Of a stretch of 5,925 nt of DNA, positions 1 through 5,925 are shown one piece after another. A model generated the notes under the pieces. It had not been told where the DNA came from. It made no database searches and was given only the letters and a program-made list of their open reading frames with translations. A program made the position numbers and the translations under genes. Position 1 is the first letter of the stretch, and every line of letters begins with the position of its first letter. The stretch is from positions 1 to 5,925 of IMG/VR virus record IMGVR_UViG_3300045988_045637. The stretch is one strand, 5' to 3'. This DNA is from a virus.

Positions 1-119
1 ATTTTTTTTGTTACATAACCCGCAACATATCTATATGTTTCTGGAACCGCTTGTGCTATCTGTACTTGACCCATTCCCCATAGGTCTGCTAACCATTTAC
101 TGGTATAGTATCCGTTGTG
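1..119. repeat. Terminal redundancy of a circular genome (copy 1). Identical to 5807-5925.
   Basis: Hand alignment: a + 8 t + gttacataacccgcaacatatc...tccgttgtg at 1-119 matches 5807-5925 base for base. This implies a 5,806-nt circular unit. Confidence 0.95.
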
Positions 120-662
120 GTGAATCTTGTATAGATTTTCTAGGTCTTTTGGTCTCCATCCGTATAGAATCATGTGATAATGTGGTCTCGCTGTTTGTTC
201 TCCGTACTCACCGGCCACAAAATAGCGTAATTTGCCCCTGTAAGCCTTTCTGAGACGTTTTAAGAACTTTTGAATATCTTCATACAGCAAAATTTGAACA
301 CTACTAGGGAGCTTCTCTCCCGGCTTCCATGTGTACTGTACCTTTCGCATGATTTCACCTGTTTTTACTATCATGCCCGGTACATGGTCATCATCATAAG
401 TTAGCGTGATAAACCAGACTTCTTCTTTTGGATAGTCTCGTGCTTCCAGTTCGATTCTTGTCGTCCAATCTTCTCGTTGTCTGATTCTGCATCCAATACA
501 TTGCCCGCATGGAATTAACATGACTTTCGGATTATACATCAAATCTTCATATTTTAGCTGTTTCCCGCTTAGCTGTGAAAAGCGGGCGAGTGAATATACC
601 CGCCCGCTCTGCTCTCTATCGCCCGGGTTGTACAGCCTTATTAACGGCTTGTAACAACTCAT
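1..662 (-). CDS. VP4: Replication initiation protein VP4 (HUH rolling-circle endonuclease), 5' portion. It runs off the window start and continues at 5806 downward. The full CDS is 5449-5806 joined to 1-662 (1,020 nt, 339 aa).
   Basis: Manual translation from the ATG at 662-660: MSCYKPLIRLYNPGDRE...PCGQCIGCR...FITLTYD (RCR motif I, 396-413)...RPHYHMILYG (HUH motif II, 174-182)...YVAGYVTKK (two-tyrosine motif III, 6-29). The start codon overlaps the VP2 stop (ATGA, 659-662). AGGTGA lies about 9 nt upstream. Confidence 0.92.
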   Translation of the reverse strand, partial: MSCYKPLIRLYNPGDREQSGRVYSLARFSQLSGKQLKYEDLMYNPKVMLIPCGQCIGCRIRQREDWTTRIELEARDYPKEEVWFITLTYDDDHVPGMIVKTGEIMRKVQYTWKPGEKLPSSVQILLYEDIQKFLKRLRKAYRGKLRYFVAGEYGEQTARPHYHMILYGWRPKDLENLYKIHHNGYYTSKWLADLWGMGQVQIAQAVPETYRYVAGYVTKK

Positions 663-1531
663 TTTAGATAATCACCTGGCTTTCTTTTTGCGCCGTAGTC
701 TCCTGTTTTATTCTGCATTGGGTTTTCTGGTTTGTGTCCTACTTTGCTACTGCCTTTTGTTTTATTTGTGATATCTCCAATTGTTTTGTTTGTTTCGTTA
801 TCGATATTTGTTAGTGCTTTCATTAGGCCGTAAGGACTTAAATGTGTTTCACTTAGCATTTGATTCCAGCTTTGCGAAGCGTTATACCAATCTGATTTAC
901 TCCAACTTGTGCTGCTGTACGAGTTTGGAACAAATCCGTTGCTTCTGCTGACTCCTAGTGCGCTGCTGCTTGCTAGTCCCATGCTTGCTCCGCTGATTGT
1001 TCCTGCAGACCCTCCAGGTGTGCTTGCTCCACCGTTTGCAAATGCTAGAATTGGGTTTATACCTGCCTTTTTCATGTCCTCAACCGCTCTTTGATATGAT
1101 GTGTTGCTCATACGCTCTTGAAACTGTCTGTTTGCTAGTGCTTCGGCGCTGTTGTAATTCATTGCGGTTGTGTTTTCGATGTGGTTATATACGCCTTGCA
1201 TTATGGCTTGCATGGTGTTGTATCCCATCTGCTGAAGCATGCTTTTTTGGTTGTATTTTTGCTGTGCTATGCCCTCTGCGCTTTGATATCCATACGCTTG
1301 CTGTAAATATTTTGCGATTTGTTCGTCATTCGTACCGGATTGGCTCCCGCTTACGGATGCTCCACCGCCTTGGCTTACACTTCCTCCGCTGCTTTGTCCT
1401 GTTCCTTCGTTTCCCCAACCGCCAAAAGCGCCTGTAACGTTTTTTACTGCGCCTGTTATGCTTCCTATGCTTGTTGCGACATTGCCAAGTATGTTTACTC
1501 CTCTTAAAATTGCTCCCCAAGGAATTGCCAT
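659..1531 (-). CDS. VP2: DNA pilot / minor capsid protein VP2
   Basis: 290-aa ORF directly downstream of VP1. It has a hydrophobic Gly/Ser-rich N-terminus and the segment NTSYQRAVEDMKKAGINPILAF, which matches the conserved core I recall from microvirus pilot proteins. Its stop overlaps the Rep start. Confidence 0.85.
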   Translation of the reverse strand: MAIPWGAILRGVNILGNVATSIGSITGAVKNVTGAFGGWGNEGTGQSSGGSVSQGGGASVSGSQSGTNDEQIAKYLQQAYGYQSAEGIAQQKYNQKSMLQQMGYNTMQAIMQGVYNHIENTTAMNYNSAEALANRQFQERMSNTSYQRAVEDMKKAGINPILAFANGGASTPGGSAGTISGASMGLASSSALGVSRSNGFVPNSYSSTSWSKSDWYNASQSWNQMLSETHLSPYGLMKALTNIDNETNKTIGDITNKTKGSSKVGHKPENPMQNKTGDYGAKRKPGDYLK

Positions 1532-1539
1532 TTTAAAAT

Positions 1540-1560
1540 AGCCGGGTTTTTGGCCCGGCT
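1540..1560 (-). promoter_or_regulatory. Intercistronic hairpin between VP1 and VP2. Possibly a leaky terminator and/or a structure that bridges the SD and the start codon.
   Basis: Minus strand reads TAA-AGAAAGGAGGA-AGCCGGG-CCAAAAA-CCCGGCT-ATTTTAAA-ATG. The stem is 7 bp (6 G:C) with a 7-nt loop, followed by a short T run. Confidence 0.6.
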
Positions 1561-1571
1561 TCCTCCTTTCT

Positions 1572-3281
1572 TTACATTTTTTCCAGACCCGGCACGCTAT
1601 ACAGCGGCATACAGCGTGTTGTATTGTTCATTACTCGAATTGCTCCAAAAAATTGTGGCTCGCTCTGAACAATCAGTGTTCTTGCAATTTCTGTTTTGCC
1701 CTCGTTCATCCATTCTTGACTGAGTGTCGGTACCTTGTCGTAGTTGTCCGCATAGTGCCAGAAGTCCAGCGTTCCTTGTGCGTTACTCCGCATTTTGCCG
1801 CTTACTCTGTTCGGCTTCATGCGATAGTCGGCCCAGGCTTCTTGATAACCGAAGGTTTCATCATCTGTGCTCGTGCCAGTAAACATGATTTCCTTCTTCT
1901 TTACAGGCTGTTCGCCTAGATTTGCGAACTGCGGGAAGTAGTAGTCCAGTCTGTCTGAGCGGCTCCAGAACCTTTCTAAGCCCTGCTGGTAACTATGGTC
2001 GTGGCGTACACACATGACACCGATAACAAAGCCGTGCTCTTCAAAGCTCTTTGTAAAGGAACTTTCATTGATAGGTGTTACTGACATTGCACCTGTTTCA
2101 CCAATAGGTGTGTCGTTTTCGGTCTGCTGTCCGCTGGTCTGCACGATCTGATTAACATTCACGTGATAGCGTCCGCCACCTAGATACTCAGGCACCTGAA
2201 CCGTTTTGTCACTGATGCTTACGCCAAAAATTGCCCTTACCTGCTCACGGTATCGACTGCCGCCACGTGCCAGTGCTTCATAGTAGTGCTGAACTGCAAA
2301 AGCCTGTCGGAGTTGGTTGATGGTTGCCGCTTCGATTTTTGACAGGTCTGCGCCCAAGTATACTGCACTGCTTTCAGTGAGGCTATCATTTCCTTCGTTT
2401 ACGCCCAGTTTTACCGGGTTTCCTTCGCCTCCTGCTCCACCTACTAGCTGGATTCCTGCTGTTGCACTGTCAATTCCATTGAGGTAGTTTACTTCTGCAG
2501 ATTGGTTGATGTTTTTCAGTACTGTATCGCTGTATGGTCTTACAGGCGCATTCCCTGTCAGTCCGATTGTCACTTCCGGCCCTCGCTGAGGATACGGCAG
2601 ACACGATGAGAAATAATCGTGAAATTTGCTCACCGGTAGACAACGTGCGCCACTTACTGCATCTCTCAGAATCCCTTCTTCGTCACTGTCTTCGTTTAAA
2701 TCCGTATACTGAATCAGTGTTTCGTCTGTAAAGTTCGTCGCCGGATTTCCTACGTTTTGGTCTCTGAAAAATTCGTTCCAGATTTTCACATATGCCCGGA
2801 CTGGCAGTGCGTTTATGTACGTTATTCCGCTTCCTTCTTTTTCGTTGATTTTTGTCGGCACTCCCATGTAGTCCAGAATGCTTCCTTCTTTTGGCCCTTT
2901 CAGGTTTTCTTTTCCGTTTGTCTCTGCGTTTGATGCGATTTTGATTTTTGGCACTTCGTATGTTTTTGTTGGCATCCACGGTGCATCGTCTGCTTCTCCC
3001 ATGAAACGCTTGAAGTTGTCCCATAGAATTCTGTTAGGACAGTAGAAGTAATAAAAATCGATGTATGCATCGTCCATAACCGGAAATTTCGGTGTGCTCA
3101 TTCGGATGATCGCCGCGGTATTTACGCTGAAAGTATCGCCGGGTAATACTTCGTCAACGTAAAACGGGATGAGTTTTCCCGAGTCAAACGTTGTGAGAAT
3201 GTTCTGGTCTCTTTTGAATCGCGTTCGACTTACGTGCGTTTGCGGTACATTGTTGAAGTGCCTCTCGTTATTTCTGTTCAT
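1572..3281 (-). CDS. VP1: Major capsid protein VP1 (phiX174 F-like jelly-roll capsid protein)
   Basis: 569-aa ORF, the largest in the genome. The N-terminus ...RTRFKRDQNILTTFDSGKLIPFYVDEVLPGDTF...MSTPKFPVMDDAYIDFYYFYCPNRILWDNFKRFMGE matches the conserved gokushovirus VP1 pattern. Strong SD: AAGGAGGAAAGCA-ATG. Confidence 0.95.
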   Translation of the reverse strand: MNRNNERHFNNVPQTHVSRTRFKRDQNILTTFDSGKLIPFYVDEVLPGDTFSVNTAAIIRMSTPKFPVMDDAYIDFYYFYCPNRILWDNFKRFMGEADDAPWMPTKTYEVPKIKIASNAETNGKENLKGPKEGSILDYMGVPTKINEKEGSGITYINALPVRAYVKIWNEFFRDQNVGNPATNFTDETLIQYTDLNEDSDEEGILRDAVSGARCLPVSKFHDYFSSCLPYPQRGPEVTIGLTGNAPVRPYSDTVLKNINQSAEVNYLNGIDSATAGIQLVGGAGGEGNPVKLGVNEGNDSLTESSAVYLGADLSKIEAATINQLRQAFAVQHYYEALARGGSRYREQVRAIFGVSISDKTVQVPEYLGGGRYHVNVNQIVQTSGQQTENDTPIGETGAMSVTPINESSFTKSFEEHGFVIGVMCVRHDHSYQQGLERFWSRSDRLDYYFPQFANLGEQPVKKKEIMFTGTSTDDETFGYQEAWADYRMKPNRVSGKMRSNAQGTLDFWHYADNYDKVPTLSQEWMNEGKTEIARTLIVQSEPQFFGAIRVMNNTTRCMPLYSVPGLEKM

Positions 3282-3663
3282 TGCTTTCCTCCTTTTCTAC
3301 AGATACTTCTGCAACTTTTTTCTGATTTCGTTGGATTTCCATTGCCGCGGCTTGTGCTGTTGCTATCATGGCGTGATACTCGTGAATGTTTGTCGGCCAT
3401 TCCGTGATATCGATGATTTCATCTGTTTTTGCGCTGTCTGCCAGACTTTTGGCAAACTCAGGGTCAAAACTCGCTTTGCGGACAATGTTTTTGATGTCGC
3501 ACTCGTCTGCATAGCTTTCAATTTCAGCTTGAATGTCGATTGGTTCGGTTTCAATCAGCTTTTTTTCGCCTTTTTCGTCCTTGCCCCAGACGTACTGCTT
3601 GCGTAGTTTTTCGCCCGGATTTGAAAAGAAGGGCTTTCGCCCTTCCTCGTATCGTTTATTCAT
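3268..3663 (-). CDS. Putative internal scaffolding protein (VP3-like), 131 aa. This is the shortened version of track ORF 3268-3816.
   Basis: ATG at 3663 is preceded by GGGAGGG. It overlaps the upstream ORF's stop by 8 nt and the VP1 start by 14 nt. The protein is acidic and contains ADECDIKNIVRK, resembling the ..ECDIN.I..K motif I recall from gokushovirus VP3 scaffolds. The family assignment is from memory. Confidence 0.6.
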   Translation of the reverse strand: MNKRYEEGRKPFFSNPGEKLRKQYVWGKDEKGEKKLIETEPIDIQAEIESYADECDIKNIVRKASFDPEFAKSLADSAKTDEIIDITEWPTNIHEYHAMIATAQAAAMEIQRNQKKVAEVSVEKEESNEQK

Positions 3664-3898
3664 TCGGCTTGCCCTCCCAGACCTTATCCGGCTCGATGCT
3701 CTCAAATCGGCCGCTTTCATCGTCGAAGTTTGCGACGTGGTAGCCCTTGTAGTCCTCAGGCGACTGCCCAAGGAAGGTTTTTTCATCCTTTGCCATAATT
3801 GTGCACATCCGTGCAAACGTCTCGTTGCTCTTGCTTTCGCCGATGTAGCAGTAGCTTTTTGCTACGCTGTCGTAGATGCCATAGTATCCATGAATCAT
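3656..3898 (-). CDS. Small non-structural protein, gokushovirus VP5/ORF5-like
   Basis: 80-aa ORF with SD AAGGAGAAAAAAC-ATG. The pattern YDSVAKSY...FARM...SPEDYKGYHVANFDDESGRF resembles the YD.KA..Y / PEDY..(x)G.FDD.TG signature I recall from the small conserved gokushovirus protein encoded upstream of the structural genes. Confidence 0.6.
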   Translation of the reverse strand: MIHGYYGIYDSVAKSYCYIGESKSNETFARMCTIMAKDEKTFLGQSPEDYKGYHVANFDDESGRFESIEPDKVWEGKPNE

Positions 3899-3910
3899 GT
3901 TTTTTCTCCT

Positions 3911-3988
3911 TTACAGTCTGATGCCGCCCCGCATGGGTTTCTGGCTGAGGTTGATACTTTTCGTTTTTCGTGCCGTTACGTTGAACAT
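3911..3988 (-). CDS. Candidate 25-aa highly basic peptide (possible J/VP8-like DNA-packaging protein)
   Basis: Manual translation: MFNVTARKTKSINLSQKPMRGGIRL, with 6 K/R and no acidic residues. It fills an otherwise unexplained 97-nt gap. The ATG is 7 nt after the upstream TGA and its TAA lies immediately upstream of the next gene's SD. It has no SD of its own. Confidence 0.3.
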   Translation of the reverse strand: MFNVTARKTKSINLSQKPMRGGIRL

Positions 3989-3995
3989 ACGCTTG

Positions 3996-4241
3996 TCAGT
4001 GCGTGCCGGCATCCGCTGTCTGTGCTTCACTTGTGTACTCCCTTCTGATTAGCTCTAGCTCGATGTCGTTGGCCCATTTCTTCATAACCCAGATCCGGCT
4101 AATGATTTCTTCTGCATCTTTCAGTTCGGACACTTTCTTCATCATCTTGTATCCGGCTTCAATCTGCTTGTATAACCTTTCGGCTTCTAGCCTGAGTGTT
4201 TCTTCGGTCTGGTCTCTGACGTTCCATGTTTTAGTCAACAT
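3996..4241 (-). CDS. Hypothetical protein, 81 aa, predicted helical or coiled-coil
   Basis: ORF on the coding strand with charged, heptad-like composition (LRLEAERLYKQIEAGYKMMKKVSELKDAEEII). AAGGAGG lies upstream but 13 nt from the ATG. I recognised no motif. Confidence 0.55.
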   Translation of the reverse strand: MLTKTWNVRDQTEETLRLEAERLYKQIEAGYKMMKKVSELKDAEEIISRIWVMKKWANDIELELIRREYTSEAQTADAGTH

Positions 4242-4246
4242 TGTCT

Positions 4247-4351
4247 TTACTTTTCCTCCTTCAGAATGTGGTAAATCTCGTCCAGCTTTTCGAGGACGTT
4301 CTTAATTAGCTGGATTGCTTCCCTCAGGTCTTTGACCTTAATCAATGCCAT
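4247..4351 (-). CDS. Candidate 34-aa amphipathic helical peptide
   Basis: Manual translation: MALIKVKDLREAIQLIKNVLEKLDEIYHILKEEK. The ATG is 3 nt after the peptidase TAA with GGGGGTG upstream, and its TAA is 5 nt before the next ATG. It exactly fills the gap between 4241 and 4355. It is below the ORF-track size cutoff. Confidence 0.35.
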   Translation of the reverse strand: MALIKVKDLREAIQLIKNVLEKLDEIYHILKEEK

Positions 4352-4354
4352 GGG

Positions 4355-4738
4355 TTACACCCCCTTTCTGTATCGTTTTTCGCGCACATCAATGTGTGTG
4401 AAGTTTGTATATCTGACTATGCCGCCCTGTTCCATGATACTGTCCGCGTATTTTGCAACTTCTCTGCTGCTGTGTCCTTTCACTACGATGTCTGCTGCCA
4501 TTCCTTTGCAGTGGTAGCTGTTTGATGCTCCGTTTACTTTGCTGTTCCAGTTTGGTGTACGGTATCCGCTGCTGATAATGACCGGTGCGTTAAAGTGATT
4601 TCTGATCGTTTCTAAGATTGCGAGTAGCTCAGGTGACCATAAAAATTCTGTTGTTTTGTCTTTGCATCTAAACTCTTCTGCTTTGAAGTGTTGCGTTAGT
4701 CGGTCGTTGTTTGTTTGGTTTAAGATTGGTGTACTCAT
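4355..4738 (-). CDS. Zinc D-Ala-D-Ala-carboxypeptidase-type cell-wall peptidase (Peptidase M15, M15_3/M15A-like). Candidate lysin.
   Basis: 127-aa ORF with SD AAAGGTGATAAAAA-ATG. Motifs: FKAEEFRC, SGYRTPNWN, SYHCKGMAADI (H76, D83) and FTHIDV (H115). This is the H-x6-D...H zinc triad layout of the small phage/bacterial M15 peptidases. Confidence 0.8.
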   Translation of the reverse strand: MSTPILNQTNNDRLTQHFKAEEFRCKDKTTEFLWSPELLAILETIRNHFNAPVIISSGYRTPNWNSKVNGASNSYHCKGMAADIVVKGHSSREVAKYADSIMEQGGIVRYTNFTHIDVREKRYRKGV

Positions 4739-4793
4739 TTTTTATCACCTTTTAGCTCATAAAATTTATATGTTTCACGCTGGTCCCTTTTCG

Positions 4794-4973
4794 TCACATC
4801 CACATTATTTTGTTTTCTTTTTCTAGCTGGTGGATTCTTTGTCTTGACAGTTGGCAAGTCCTGTTATCCCAGCACCTCATCTTCTTGTTGTAAGTATAAG
4901 GGAACTTTATTCTGTTGTCAATTGGCGATTTGTACCATTTTACCTTTTTGTTTTCGGTGTATTCGTACATCAT
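4794..4973 (-). CDS. Hypothetical protein, 59 aa, first ORF after promoter P1. This is the shortened version of track ORF 4794-5027.
   Basis: ATGATG at 4973-4968 is preceded by AGAGAGGTAAGCAAT. The track's start at 5027 is a TTG that is actually part of the -35 box TTGACA. The protein is K/N/Y-rich with no recognised motif, and a second promoter lies inside the ORF. Confidence 0.45.
   Translation of the reverse strand: MMYEYTENKKVKWYKSPIDNRIKFPYTYNKKMRCWDNRTCQLSRQRIHQLEKENKIMWM
4893..4921 (-). promoter_or_regulatory. Promoter P2, sigma-70/sigma-A type, internal to the 59-aa ORF
   Basis: Minus strand: TTGACA (4921-4916), 17-nt spacer ACAGAATAAAGTTCCCT, then TATACT (4898-4893). It sits about 155 nt upstream of the peptidase start codon. 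Confidence 0.6.
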
Positions 4974-4998
4974 ATTGCTTACCTCTCTTTCTGACTCT

Positions 4999-5027
4999 AT
5001 TGTATCACATTTCTTTACGTTTGTCAA
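4999..5027 (-). promoter_or_regulatory. Promoter P1, sigma-70/sigma-A type with extended -10
   Basis: Minus strand: TTGACA (5027-5022), 17-nt spacer AACGTAAAGAAATGTGA, then TACAAT (5004-4999), with TG at the extended -10 position. An A/T-rich UP-like tract (GAAAAATTTT) lies just upstream, and an SD plus ATG about 20-30 nt downstream. Confidence 0.75.
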
Positions 5028-5053
5028 GTCCTCTGCAGAAAATTTTTCATTAG

Positions 5054-5104
5054 ATGGCCGCCGTTGCGCGCTACGCGGCGCAACTTCCAGCGAAGCGCGG
5101 CCGT
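5054..5104. other. GC-rich compound fold (predicted three-way junction)
   Basis: The outer stem pairs 5054-5061 with 5097-5104 (GGCCGC/GCGGCC core plus A:T and one G:T). Inner hairpin 1 is GTTGCGC (5063-5069) / GCGCAAC (5078-5084) with an 8-nt loop. The inner mini-hairpin is GCGAAGC (5090-5096). About 72% G+C by hand count, in an otherwise AT-rich spacer. Confidence 0.6.
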
Positions 5105-5140
5105 GACTTTCCCGCTCGATTCCGGACTGCTTCTATTGGG

Positions 5141-5243
5141 TTTTCAACATTTTCAACATAGTTTTCAACATTTCAACATTGTTAAACTTTAGCACAATAG
5201 AGTGTTTCAACAATTCAACAAGTTTTCAACAAATCTTTCAACA
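5141..5243 (+). repeat. Iteron array: 8 same-orientation copies of (T)TTCAACA in two clusters of four
   Basis: The TTCAACA core ends at 5149, 5158, 5170, 5178, 5212, 5220, 5231 and 5243. Four copies are the exact 9-mer TTTTCAACA (5141-5149, 5150-5158, 5162-5170, 5223-5231). Start-to-start spacing is 8-12 nt within clusters. The larger module AGTTTTCAACA...TTTCAACATTGTT occurs twice (5160-5183 and 5221-5248). Confidence 0.9.
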
Positions 5244-5288
5244 TTGTTTTTTGTTTATTTTTAACGCTCTAACGTTTTAAAATTATAG

Positions 5289-5305
5289 TTTTCAACTTTT
5301 CCACA
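5289..5305 (+). promoter_or_regulatory. Degenerate iteron TTTTCAACT overlapping by one base a DnaA-box-consensus 9-mer TTTTCCACA
   Basis: TTTTCCACA at 5297-5305 fits the relaxed DnaA box consensus TTWTNCACA at all 9 positions. TTTTCAACT is at 5289-5297. Both are in the same orientation as the iteron array. Confidence 0.5.
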
Positions 5306-5341
5306 TACCCTACTACTACGACTACAACAAGTTATATTATA

Positions 5342-5391
5342 ATACGTGCGCACGCGTGCGCGTGTAGTTTTCGCGTGCACGTGTGTGCGCG
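5342..5391. repeat. Two alternating purine-pyrimidine CG/TG tracts (25 nt and 20 nt) with nested palindromes
   Basis: Perfect R-Y alternation over 5342-5366 and 5372-5391, separated by GTTTT. Palindromes: CGTGCGCACG (5345-5354), GCGCACGCGTGCGC (5348-5361), CGTGCACG (5374-5381) and CACGTG (5378-5383). Confidence 0.85.
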
Positions 5392-5404
5392 ATTAGAATA
5401 ATAA

Positions 5405-5436
5405 AGCCCAGTACCTTACTTGATAGGTACTGGGCT
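5405..5436 (-). terminator. Rho-independent terminator downstream of Rep, marking the end of the single transcription unit
   Basis: Perfect 12-bp stem AGCCCAGTACCT / AGGTACTGGGCT with an 8-nt loop, 12 nt after the Rep TAA. On the minus strand it is followed by TTTATTATTCT. Confidence 0.75.
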
Positions 5437-5448
5437 AGGTGACACCAA

Positions 5449-5925
5449 TTATAAAATACCACGCTTTTTCGTTTGTTTTTTGGTGACGCGTTCTTTTGTC
5501 TCTAGGACTGTTTTATAGTCCTGTTCTTCTAGCTGTAGACGCTTCTGCTCTATGGCGTTTTTCTGTCTGTTTTGTTTAATTCTCCACAGTCTTTGTGGGT
5601 TTTCTGCTTCCATCTGCTTTTCGTAGTATCTTGGAATTTGCGCCCGTTTTCCGTTGGTGCATTGAATGTAGCCTTGCCGCCAGATTTCTGCTTTGTGTTC
5701 TTGGTAGTAGTGGTCTCCAAGACCTGGTTTTAGGCTCATGCAAGCAAACGGTTTCGTTTGTCCCAATTCGTAGTACGCATTGGCTTTCTTTCCGTCTATC
5801 TCGTACATTTTTTTTGTTACATAACCCGCAACATATCTATATGTTTCTGGAACCGCTTGTGCTATCTGTACTTGACCCATTCCCCATAGGTCTGCTAACC
5901 ATTTACTGGTATAGTATCCGTTGTG
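5449..5925 (-). CDS. VP4: Replication initiation protein VP4, 3' portion. The 143-aa track ORF 5449-5880 is only the part downstream of internal Met197. 5807-5925 duplicates 1-119.
   Basis: Open frame continues upstream of 5880 to the window end and is in frame with 1-662. It contains the catalytic motif YRYVAGYVTKK (5812-5835) and a basic C-terminal tail. TAA stop at 5449-5451. Confidence 0.92.
   Translation of the reverse strand, partial: HNGYYTSKWLADLWGMGQVQIAQAVPETYRYVAGYVTKKMYEIDGKKANAYYELGQTKPFACMSLKPGLGDHYYQEHKAEIWRQGYIQCTNGKRAQIPRYYEKQMEAENPQRLWRIKQNRQKNAIEQKRLQLEEQDYKTVLETKERVTKKQTKKRGIL
5807..5925. repeat. Terminal redundancy of a circular genome (copy 2). Identical to 1-119.
   Basis: Same hand alignment as for 1-119. 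The reading frame of Rep is preserved across the junction: the ATG at 5880 corresponds to position 74, and 662-74=588 is divisible by 3. Confidence 0.95.

Follow-up and report, generated by a model that had tools for sequence, protein, structure and literature searches.

A host-type DnaA-box and DnaA-trio module, probably a mimic of a bacterial origin, in the intergenic region of gut gokushoviruses

We analyzed a window of 5,925 nucleotides (positions 1 to 5,925 of IMG/VR record IMGVR_UViG_3300045988_045637), corresponding to a circular gut gokushovirus of 5806 nt (~5.8 kb), in which an array of TTCAACA iterons is located in the sole large intergenic region, between VP4 and a block of small genes. 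These iterons are probably binding sites for the DnaA protein of the host and, together with the sequence downstream of them, appear to constitute a copy or mimic of a host dnaA-dnaN origin. The module matches origins of Oscillospiraceae and Ruminococcus in motif, in geometry and, partially, in sequence, and it is conserved across a large microvirus clade, independent of both Rep divergence and gene orientation. The features of the region, in window coordinates, are:

4999-5027, minus strand: candidate sigma-70-type promoter (TTGACA, 17 nt, TG-n-TACAAT; 11/12 matches), serving the gene block beginning at 4994.
5141-5178, plus strand: putative DnaA-box cluster A, four co-oriented boxes, TTTTCAACA at 5141, 5150 and 5162 and ATTTCAACA at 5170.
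5143, 5152, 5164, 5172, 5206, 5214, 5225 and 5237, plus strand: starts of the TTCAACA cores.
5179-5203: inter-cluster spacer TTGTTAAACTTTAGCACAATAGAGT, kept in close relatives.
5204-5243, plus strand: putative DnaA-box cluster B, four co-oriented boxes with cores at 5206, 5214, 5225 and 5237.
5244-5288: AT-rich spacer of 45 nt with TAACG repeats, conserved in length and partly in sequence.
5289-5305, plus strand: tandem box pair, TTTTCAACT (5289-5297) and TTTTCCACA (5297-5305), overlapping by 1 base, in the 9+8-nt geometry of B. subtilis #6/#7.
5306-5309: 4-nt spacer TACC, counterpart of GGCC in B. subtilis.
5310-5324, minus strand: putative DnaA-trio array, CTA CTA CTA CGA CTA on the plus strand and 3'-GAT GAT GAT GCT GAT-5' on the minus (coding) strand.
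5325-5332: CAACAAGT (ACTTGTTG on the minus strand), phage-specific, in phase with the trios, absent from host origins.
5332-5344: AT-only run of 13 nt, TTATATTATAATA, the presumed duplex-opening site; AT-rich in all relatives, with varying sequence.
5345-5391: alternating CG/TG tract capable of self-pairing, conserved in composition and not in sequence.
5405-5436: 12-bp hairpin just past the VP4 stop codon, with the loop TACTTGAT at 5417-5424 on the plus strand.

TTCAACA occurs nine times in the window, eight times on the plus strand and once on the minus strand at 3251, compared with a mean of 1.07 and a maximum of 4 in 200 shuffled sequences, none of which reached nine. An earlier note, made from the sequence alone, had judged the eight co-oriented copies to be beyond chance and had proposed such a shuffling control; with ~1 copy expected, the judgement holds for the span 5143-5243. 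As it had described, the TTTTCAACA 9-mers at 5141-5149 and 5150-5158 do abut, and TTTTCCACA at 5297-5305 does match TTWTNCACA exactly. Its spacing of 8-12 nt applies inside the clusters, but not to a single even series, the start-to-start distances being 9, 12, 8, 34, 8, 11 and 12. The boxes instead fall into two groups of four (clusters A and B, 5141-5178 and 5204-5243) with a 25-nt spacer between them, and a third, degenerate element, the TTTTCAACT/TTTTCCACA pair at 5289-5305, follows 45 nt past cluster B. That the boxes lie one mismatch from TTWTNCACA is correct, but does not discriminate on its own, with 15 such sites window-wide against 13.4 expected. The signal of the array lies in its exact repetition, single orientation and clustering. 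The 10-mer TCAACATTGT is present at 4235, 5173 and 5238, and chance alone would rarely give a third copy (0.01 expected). The copy at 4235-4244 had been suggested as a possible regulatory link to the 81-aa ORF, or else a coincidence; since the homologous start codon carries it in 0 of 52 relatives, we regard it as coincidence.

The series of boxes ends in a complete unit of box pair, spacer and DnaA-trios, which further supports a resemblance to bacterial oriC. In B. subtilis, the basal unwinding system (BUS) of incC comprises DnaA-box #6/#7, a GC spacer, DnaA-trios and AT-rich DNA (Richardson 2016/2019, Pelliciari 2021/2023), and the unwinding unit reads, in succession, TTATCCACA, AATCCACA, GGCC and CTACTATTACTTCTACTA (supplement, PMC8287927). 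The window counterpart reads TTTTCAACT, TTTCCACA, TACC and CTACTACTACGACTA, followed by the AT-only run; B. subtilis DnaA-box #6/#7, TTATCCACAAATCCACA, has the same 9+8-nt geometry as the phage pair. Published BUS search rules specify a box with ≤2 mismatches, a second box with ≤4, a spacer of ≤16 nt and ≥3 NAN trios, and the box pair, spacer and trios of the window fall within these limits. The proximal box, TTTTCCACA at 5297-5305, has 1 mismatch to TTATCCACA, while the second co-oriented box, TTTTCAACT at 5289-5297, has 3 mismatches and a start-to-start distance of 8 nt. The spacer, typically ~4 nt and GC-rich, is TACC in the window and 0-4 nt in relatives; the variants seen were TACC, CCCC, GCCC and GACC in hosts and TACT, CTCC, GGCC, GCCC and TTGC in other phages. 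At least three consecutive trios have a central A, with a polarity that matches the B. subtilis scaffold oHM558. Even a loose pattern, one DnaA-like box ≤16 nt from three CTA trios, arose in only 2 of 3000 shuffled sequences.

Shared with the B. subtilis BUS are the co-oriented boxes 8 nt apart, the 4-nt spacer with a CC end, the CTA-type trios, whose 3'-GAT-5' lies on the strand running 5'-trios-boxes-3', the AT-rich DNA next to them and the further boxes upstream. Unlike the BUS, the phage module belongs to a single-stranded DNA phage of 5.8 kb and lies away from dnaA, uses TTTTCAACA-type boxes, has the extra CAACAAGT after the trios and can face either way with respect to the genes. A BUS lies in a chromosome origin, usually beside dnaA; because this module is located in a microvirus genome, it is BUS-like in form and no chromosomal origin. 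Several details count against a DnaA origin: the fourth trio, CGA in the window and GAT in many relatives, lacks the central A; CAACAAGT, an 8-nt motif with no counterpart in host origins, intervenes between the trios and the AT run; this run at 5332-5344, although AT-only, is short (13 nt vs a 27-mer in B. subtilis); and some relatives, KT264792 (TCTCCATA) among them, have a degenerate trio-proximal box.

Bacterial genomes were scanned for three close TTCAACA, and at least 120 rows matched, with Oscillospiraceae, taxa named Ruminococc- or Clostridia accounting for about one third of the matches listed. Among these matches, at least ten loci carried the array between DnaA and DnaN (tblastn, with a Pfam check on two), including the complete chromosome of Owariibacterium komagatae (Oscillospiraceae), and at an eleventh listed locus the array lay beside DnaA at a contig end. 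We know of no description of these Oscillospiraceae/Ruminococcus dnaA-dnaN origins. Each contained 4-20 copies of TTCAACA vs 0-5 of TTCCACA among the matches listed; retrieval by the TTCAACA pattern biases the share of this box upward and makes the taxonomic enrichment, too, a biased estimate.

Sequence identity between the phage and these origins extends beyond the box cores. Positions 5141-5173 are identical to a dnaA-dnaN origin of an Oscillospiraceae MAG (L210) at 33/33 positions, 5214-5245 to an origin of Ruminococcus sp. (L175) at 31/32, and the box/spacer/trio junction 5298-5324 to the latter at 25/27. The phage module and the host origins have in common GTTTTCAACA boxes with 8-12-nt spacing (8, 9, 11 and 12 in phages, with peaks at 9 and 11 in hosts), mostly in one orientation and with even the linker bases alike, and also a terminal pair, a TACC/CCCC/GCCC spacer, (CTA)3-5 at the position equivalent to the phage trios, and AT-rich DNA. 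A spacer of roughly similar length to phage 5244-5288 precedes the terminal box pair of the recovered origins. Among the matches listed, 851 kb contained ten (CTA)3+ runs, and seven of these directly follow a DnaA-like box or box pair plus a 4-nt spacer, C-rich in six. Unlike the phage module, the host origins are 300-1300 nt long, include some inverted boxes, are flanked by dnaA and dnaN, and lack CAACAAGT and the CG/TG tract. The proposal in the earlier note of an oriC-like DnaA-box array with a Firmicute host is supported by this recurrence of boxes, spacings and linker bases at verified dnaA-dnaN origins, the box share being raised by the TTCAACA pre-selection.

The DnaA proteins encoded next to the host arrays have the recognition helix RDHST(I/V)VY(S/A/T), vs RDHTTVIHA in B. 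subtilis. TTCAACA is the majority box in the recovered, TTCAACA-retrieved origins, and in two of them (L167 and L189) the trio-anchoring pair consists of two such boxes. The description of the phage boxes as weak or low-affinity is thus probably wrong; they probably represent sites cognate to the host DnaA, and the host is likely an Oscillospiraceae/Ruminococcus-type Clostridium.

Low-affinity DnaA arrays of E. coli oriC consist of close, co-oriented non-consensus boxes that guide a DnaA oligomer; these boxes bind more weakly than the consensus and fill cooperatively, starting from high-affinity anchors at their flanks. The phage boxes are also closely spaced, co-oriented and non-consensus, but their layout is of the Firmicute box-pair-plus-trio type, and the phage-type box, being the commonest in the recovered host origins, need not be weak. 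The origins of P1 oriR, pSC101, F, R6K and RK2 contain a few DnaA boxes that assist a plasmid-encoded iteron-binding initiator. The phage resembles them as a mobile replicon whose origin boxes would recruit host DnaA, and differs in having a full chromosome-type array with trios, a rolling-circle Rep and no iteron-binding initiator.

The earlier note had advised a search of metagenomic microvirus genomes for TTCAACA arrays; the module was found at the same position in 73 related microviruses from human, pig and monkey samples collected by several laboratories, and part of this set was retrieved with patterns containing two or three of the ten boxes. In 51 close genomes, conservation was 94% for box cores, 92% for trios, 79% for linkers and 73% for spacers, and the sole frequent core change was A<->C at box position 6, which interconverts the host variant and canonical TTTTCCACA. 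The 100% conservation score of CAACAAGT is built in, as this motif was the anchor for collecting the module set. The architecture and the box core remain constant while identity falls to 36% for VP4 and 40% for VP1. In other sub-clades, GTTGCACAA and lineage-specific inverted repeats replace the inter-cluster spacer TTGTTAAACTTTAGCACAATAGAGT. Relative to the genes, the module is inverted in 7 relatives, which fits a cassette recognised by a host factor. Long viral contigs matching an 18-mer pattern (L006, L009, L014, L016, L027, L036 and L038) had no nearby box arrays or trios and are best read as chance matches, and the small contigs L078 and L116, with TTCCACA arrays, had no VP1 homolog and are uninformative on the presence of such modules in other microviruses.

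Several other readings of the intergenic region were considered and dropped. No credible Rfam match to a structured RNA was found in 4950-5480, and the GC-rich segment 5054-5105 folds no better than shuffled sequences (z = -0.22). As -35-like TTGAAA promoters on the minus strand, the repeats offer one weak 9/12 site within the array, and the trios would be left unexplained. A dif/Xer-like site in 5327-5356, assessed against the E. coli and B. subtilis dif sequences, has a mismatched XerD arm, and the sequence at 5333-5344 is variable among relatives.

A Microviridae nick site of the phiX174 type is an ACTTG-containing motif that Rep cleaves on the packaged, coding-sense strand. Two candidate nick motifs lie in or near the module. 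ACTTGATA (5418-5425, in the loop of the hairpin at 5405-5436) equals the phiX174 nick core and is on the non-coding strand. The loop TACTTGAT is constant in the relatives compared, the stems differ yet still pair (by eye), and the orientation of the hairpin relative to the genes is fixed. In the window, the coding strand carries the second motif, ACTTGTTG (5332-5325), which flips in 7 relatives. Placement of ACTTGATA in a hairpin loop, and of ACTTGTTG beside the trios, recalls the phiX174 origin (CAACTTG/ATATTAATAAC) and the Chp2 and phiMH2K loops; unlike in those phages, ACTTGATA is on the non-coding strand, and the ACTTGTTG copy is unstructured and flips together with the DnaA module. We considered whether ACTTG/TTG beside the trios might be the VP4 nick site, exposed by DnaA instead of by a hairpin. 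In its favour are the resemblance of the CAACAAGT/ACTTGTTG motif to the phiMH2K hairpin loop ACTTGTTGTA and the absence of a stem in the window, but this possibility is weakened by the inversion of the module in 7 relatives and by the presence of the ACTTGATA-loop hairpin.

Based on the resemblance to the BUS, we propose that the GTTTTCAACA-type boxes of 5141-5243, arranged in one orientation as two arrays of four, would load a DnaA oligomer onto the double-stranded replicative form. The terminal pair (5289-5305), 4-nt spacer and CTA/TAG DnaA-trios (5310-5324) would then hand the oligomer to one strand, and the adjacent 13-nt AT run (5332-5344) would open, as in the B. subtilis system; we infer both the binding of DnaA to the phage boxes and the opening of the duplex. 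The purpose of opening is more speculative. Rolling-circle replication of the phiX174 type needs no DnaA, and for this reason the need for a DnaA module is not obvious. In our preferred reading, opening may start or license replication of the replicative form, by helping neighbouring inverted repeats to extrude, among them the hairpin at 5405-5436 with ACTTGATA in its loop, and so providing a single-stranded substrate for Rep (VP4); alternatively, it may let the host helicase load. We only tentatively suggest that this gut gokushovirus clade took over the origin-opening module of its Gram-positive host, whose DnaA would open the replicative form and thereby allow replication to be started by Rep or by the host helicase.

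A variant of this explanation with a different purpose is a plasmid-like maintenance origin, supporting theta replication synchronised with the host while the phage is in a carrier state, with Rep rolling circle used for virions only. All recognised elements of a host dnaA-dnaN origin are indeed present, the cassette occurs in either orientation, as a bidirectional origin would allow, and the phage has no integrase, with no prophage copies among the genome matches listed. Nevertheless, we consider it unlikely: 5.8 kb contain no partition or copy-control function, carrier states in the clade are without direct evidence, and the end that would unwind points in every case toward the conserved hairpin by VP4, suggesting coupling to Rep.

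It also seems rather improbable that the boxes act as a DnaA sink or sensor without origin function, soaking up DnaA to delay or stop host initiation, or tying phage transcription to DnaA status. When cloned on multicopy plasmids, box regions of B. subtilis oriC show 'incompatibility' with the chromosome, and DnaA doubles as a transcription factor; both facts favour such a role, as do the ten boxes per phage genome that match the host's own origin boxes and the strong candidate promoter 114 nt from cluster A, the nearest box. Titration requires boxes only, however, and leaves unexplained the conserved spacer, the in-register trios (92%), the AT run and the constant order of box pair, trios and AT run; moreover, no box overlaps the promoter.

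Binding of the iterons by the phage Rep (VP4) or a small phage protein, raised in the earlier note and reminiscent of geminivirus, circovirus and plasmid rolling-circle origins, is very improbable. As in CRESS-DNA viruses and rolling-circle plasmids, short direct repeats lie in the origin-bearing intergenic region, here beside the Rep gene and 90-290 nt from the candidate nick motifs. Co-variation with Rep, the test that the note itself had named, is absent, the core being unchanged across VP4 identities of 96-36%. The array does not adjoin the nick hairpin, lying 160-290 nt off and inverted relative to both hairpin and Rep in 7 genomes, its main variant is the canonical DnaA box, and the same sequence, spacing and linkers recur at dnaA-dnaN origins of bacteria, in surroundings free of phage genes. 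A functionless passenger, whether a piece of host origin gained by recombination or an assembly chimera, would account for the 27-33-nt stretches nearly or fully identical to host origins, but is scarcely credible for a module held at the same position in 73 genomes across sample sources and laboratories, with boxes more conserved than linkers and an architecture kept at 36% Rep identity.

Microviruses are textbook examples of replication by a phage nickase and not by the host initiator. In a literature drawn mostly from outside subscription journals, with co-mentions judged by title or abstract, no report was found of DnaA boxes, oriC or DnaA-trios in Microviridae, and to our knowledge a DnaA-dependent/rolling-circle hybrid origin has not been described for any single-stranded DNA virus. 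If correct, our reading would place a conserved chromosome-type DnaA unwinding module in a microvirus origin, altering the nickase-only picture, and would define such a hybrid origin, as well as a synthesisable system of ~200 nt in which to study the coupling of DnaA opening to another initiator. On the bacterial side, the TTCAACA-retrieved origins indicate that Oscillospiraceae/Ruminococcus have TTTTCAACA among their main origin boxes and that the recognition helix of their DnaA is altered as well, a point of importance for origin prediction software built around TTATCCACA. Few gut gokushoviruses have a known host, and documentation of microviruses infecting Gram-positive bacteria is scant (PMC9239249). 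Matching phage DnaA boxes to bacterial origins may offer a new, culture-free signal for host prediction, pointing here to Oscillospiraceae/Ruminococcus, and the module would, if our reading is right, be a built-in host label for abundant gut microviruses that at present lack an assigned host.

The window is a complete circular genome of 5806 nt with terminal redundancy, positions 1-119 repeating 5807-5925 (119 nt, read from the sequence). All of its genes lie on the - strand, and the closest GenBank records are gut gokushoviruses of humans, pigs and monkeys. The box array lies within the single large intergenic region, 4995-5448, bordered by a strong promoter and a hairpin.

Features of the window
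Minus strand: VP1 capsid (Phage_F, E = 3e-138)
Minus strand: Chp2-type scaffold protein
Minus strand: Phage_ORF5 protein
Minus strand: M15 peptidase
Minus strand: VP2
Minus strand, across the window ends: VP4, rolling-circle Rep (REP_ORF2-G2P)
5027-4999, - strand: strong promoter, one border of the intergenic region
5141-5178, + strand: box cluster, four TTCAACA, start-to-start 9, 12, 8
5204-5243, + strand: box cluster, four TTCAACA, start-to-start 8, 11, 12
5289-5305, + strand: degenerate box pair TTTTCAACT/TTTTCCACA, 45 nt past the second cluster
5405-5436: hairpin directly after the VP4 stop codon, other border of the intergenic region

Between 5143 and 5243 the + strand carries eight TTCAACA copies, where 1.07 would be expected for the whole window on both strands; none of 200 shuffles reached the observed count. 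The enrichment over shuffled sequence that the earlier note had proposed to test is thus present, and its coordinates were correct on recheck. From the final box of the first cluster to the opening box of the second, the distance is 34 nt, start to start. The signal lies in exact repetition, single orientation and clustering; sites a single mismatch away from the DnaA consensus TTWTNCACA, the measure used in the earlier note, show no enrichment across the window (15 sites vs 13.4 expected). A third copy of TCAACATTGT, at 4235-4244, spans the 81-aa ORF's start codon (0.01 expected by chance); the suggested link to that gene is not borne out, as none of the 52 relatives that have the ORF carries the copy there.

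Other repeats were observed in the intergenic region. A perfect 10-nt inverted repeat, ACTCTATTGT (4994-5003) and ACAATAGAGT (5194-5203), 190 nt apart, joins the promoter -10 region on the - strand to the inter-cluster spacer. This spacer (5179-5203), and the same position in the retrieved sequences L020, L043, L068, L147 and L156, carries lineage-specific inverted repeats after a common GTTGCACAA, either TGCACAAA..TTTGTGCA or TCGTCA..TGACGA, which may form an operator for another protein. Positions 5345-5391 hold an alternating CG/TG tract of ~47 nt, broken by TAGTTTT and capable of self-pairing, whose composition but not sequence is kept among relatives; alternating tracts of this type are prone to form left-handed (Z) DNA. 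An insertion of ~80 nt precedes the tract in L007, L012, L015 and L018.

From 5289, the + strand reads TTTTCAACT, TTTCCACA, TACC, CTA CTA CTA CGA CTA, CAACAAGT and TATATTATAATA, comparable to the B. subtilis unwinding scaffold TTATCCACA, AATCCACA, GGCC, CTACTATTACTTCTACTA (supplement of PMC8287927), with equal strand polarity of the trios relative to the boxes. The window sequence obeys all the rules set by the published search program, and a looser pattern, one DnaA-like box at most 16 nt from three CTA trios, appeared in 2 of 3000 genome shuffles. The layout, search rules and shuffle count together indicate that the box series ends in a complete origin-opening unit, not merely at 5305. At sequence level the phage element has every defining feature of the basal unwinding system (two DnaA boxes, 4-nt spacer, DnaA-trios, AT-rich DNA), but that system sits at a chromosome origin and the phage element does not; we therefore call the latter a phage-borne origin-opening module of host type and not an oriC. 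Between trios and AT run, every collected module has CAACAAGT (5325-5332; ACTTGTTG on the coding strand), which served as the anchor for collecting them. This motif is similar to the phiMH2K loop ACTTGTTGTA and was not found in the host origins retrieved.

This layout bears on the two main rival explanations. A pure DnaA sink or sensor would use the boxes, but leaves the spacer, trios and AT run unexplained. A plasmid-like maintenance origin would be a variant of the same opening mechanism. The DnaA boxes of P1 or pSC101 origins assist a plasmid-encoded iteron-binding initiator, an arrangement from which the phage module differs, and we know of no DnaA-trios in plasmid or phage origins such as these.

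The host-type reading was examined by scanning bacterial genomes, one for each species, for three TTCAACA spaced 0-5 nt, a pattern comprising neither dnaA-dnaN location nor trio unit. At least 120 loci were obtained. About a third of the matches listed belong to Oscillospiraceae, Ruminococcus/Ruminococcaceae or unclassified Clostridia, an enrichment biased, like the TTCAACA share, by retrieval with a TTCAACA pattern. Local tblastn among these matches, with a Pfam check on two, placed the array between DnaA and DnaN in at least ten loci (L167, L175, L189, L201, L210, L213, L215, L237, L240 and L263), including the complete chromosome of Owariibacterium komagatae (Oscillospiraceae); in one further listed locus, at the end of a contig, the array adjoins DnaA. 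Local tblastn detected no VP1 or VP4 homolog in any of the 120 loci listed, so these arrays are not prophages. The TTCAACA-retrieved dnaA-dnaN regions each contain 4-20 TTCAACA vs 0-5 TTCCACA, mostly in a single orientation (20 and 0 in L189), which suggests, with the share biased by the retrieval pattern, that GTTTTCAACA is the main DnaA box of Oscillospiraceae and Ruminococcus chromosome origins.

Most of these arrays end in a box pair followed by CCCC, GCCC, TACC or GACC, CTA-type trios and AT-rich DNA, as in the Ruminococcus locus L175 (TTCCACAGTTTCAACA TACC CTACTACTACTACTA ACTATATAC), and six of the ten regions among the matches listed have three to five exact CTA. The 851 kb fetched contained ten (CTA)3+ runs; seven of them are immediately preceded by a DnaA-like box, or a pair of such boxes, and then a 4-nt spacer that is C-rich in six. 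Phage and host sequences also coincide at length: 5141-5173 equals the origin of L210, an Oscillospiraceae MAG, at 33/33 nt including linkers, and the L175 origin matches 5214-5245 at 31/32 and 5298-5324 (box, spacer, trios) at 25/27. Box spacings are 8, 9, 11 and 12 in the phages, with host peaks at 9 and 11. The likely host is thus a member of Oscillospiraceae/Ruminococcus. The DnaA recognition helix beside the arrays, readable at eight loci (L167, L175, L189, L201, L215, L240, L263 and also L243), is RDHST(I/V)VY(S/A/T) vs RDHTTVIHA in B. subtilis; this change might account for the A at box position 6, and box and protein may form a lineage-specific pair. Host-origin identity and the trio unit support the DnaA reading of the earlier note and sharpen it to probable cognate host boxes with a full unwinding unit, while its view of them as weak boxes becomes doubtful given the preponderance of TTCAACA in these TTCAACA-retrieved origins.

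TTCAACA arrays were also seen in two Thermotogota contigs, L204 (Mesoaciditoga MAG; TTTTCAACACTTTCAACA GTAC (CTA)4, then AT-rich DNA) and L271 (Athalassotoga MAG), so this box type is not limited to Oscillospirales. Non-coding TTCAACA clusters occur in further Oscillospirales loci (L164, L168, L171-L173, L203, L220, L222, L225, L231, L251 and others), where the DNA fetched around them shows no DnaA signature; each may represent a secondary DnaA-box cluster or else, as in L263 and L243, the origin half between rpmH and dnaA.

The search of metagenomic microviruses proposed in the earlier note was productive: pattern scans of IMG/VR and GenBank, none including trios, yielded 73 microvirus genomes with the module. 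Their layout is 3-4 boxes, a ~37-nt spacer, four boxes, a ~45-nt AT-rich spacer, the box pair, a gap of 0-4 nt, 4-6 CTA-type trios, CAACAAGT and an AT-rich run. Among 51 close genomes, conservation is 94% in box cores (somewhat inflated, part of the set having been retrieved with patterns holding 2-3 of the ten boxes), 92% in trios, 79% in intra-cluster linkers and 73% in spacers; the 100% score of CAACAAGT is built in, since it was the collection anchor. The sole frequent core substitution, A<->C at box position 6 (405 A, 96 C), switches between the host variant and canonical TTTTCCACA. The sub-clade trio spacers TACC, TACT, GCCC, CTCC and GGCC recur among different host origins. Separately, a 31-kb viral contig (L045) and a 5.6-kb contig (L108) alternate TTCAACA/TTCCACA boxes with GGTAACGCGTT palindromes; by VP1 they are not microviruses, and represent another mobile element with host-type DnaA boxes.

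Genes and TTCAACA reading are on opposite strands in the window and in 66 of these 73 genomes; they share a strand in seven divergent genomes (L043, L059, L091, L097, L110, L141 and L150; VP4 36-44% identical), where CAACAAGT/ACTTGTTG flips with the module and a GGTGTCAAC-plus-hairpin unit lies just upstream of the VP4 start. The module therefore behaves as a cassette that can take either orientation relative to the genes, which fits a host-factor site on duplex DNA, not a strand-specific Rep accessory. The alternative that the boxes are Rep-binding iterons, also raised in the earlier note, is disfavoured by this inversion and by a layout that stays unchanged while identity to the window falls from 96% to 36% in VP4 and down to 40% in VP1. 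A functionless passenger is likewise disfavoured.

What was observed of the module, namely its sequence, its geometry, its conservation and its identity with host origins, makes it probable that it functions through DnaA. We propose, with fair confidence, that host DnaA would bind all ten boxes when the phage DNA is in its double-stranded replicative form, that the co-oriented arrays and terminal pair would steer a DnaA oligomer onto the - strand TAG trios, and that the neighbouring AT run would then open, as in the basal unwinding system. In both orientation classes the trio/AT-rich end points towards the hairpin wherever the screen found one (60 of 74 genomes). HUH nickases require single-stranded substrates; since the opening keeps a constant position facing the CG/TG tract, which is self-complementary, and the ACTTGATA hairpin, coupling to the start of replication is suggested. 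Speculatively, opening by DnaA could favour extrusion of the hairpin for VP4, or could serve host helicase loading.

A full-text literature search, thin in its coverage of subscription journals, returned no description of DnaA boxes, oriC or DnaA-trios in Microviridae, and a recent survey (PMC9239249) states that there is hardly any documentation of microviruses from Gram-positive bacteria. The terminator-like hairpin after VP4 keeps a fixed orientation relative to the genes; its loop (5417-5424, + strand TTACTTGATAGG) is constant in the close relatives compared, and its stems vary yet still pair, as judged by eye. Chlamydia phage Chp2 also carries TACTTGAT in the loop of its intergenic hairpin, and phiMH2K has a similar loop. 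ACTTGATA (5418-5425) is identical to the core of the nick site of phiX174, CAACTTG|ATA. The hairpin may be the Rep origin, and its ACTTG reading lies on the non-coding strand, which bears on the choice of strand for nicking and packaging in this clade.
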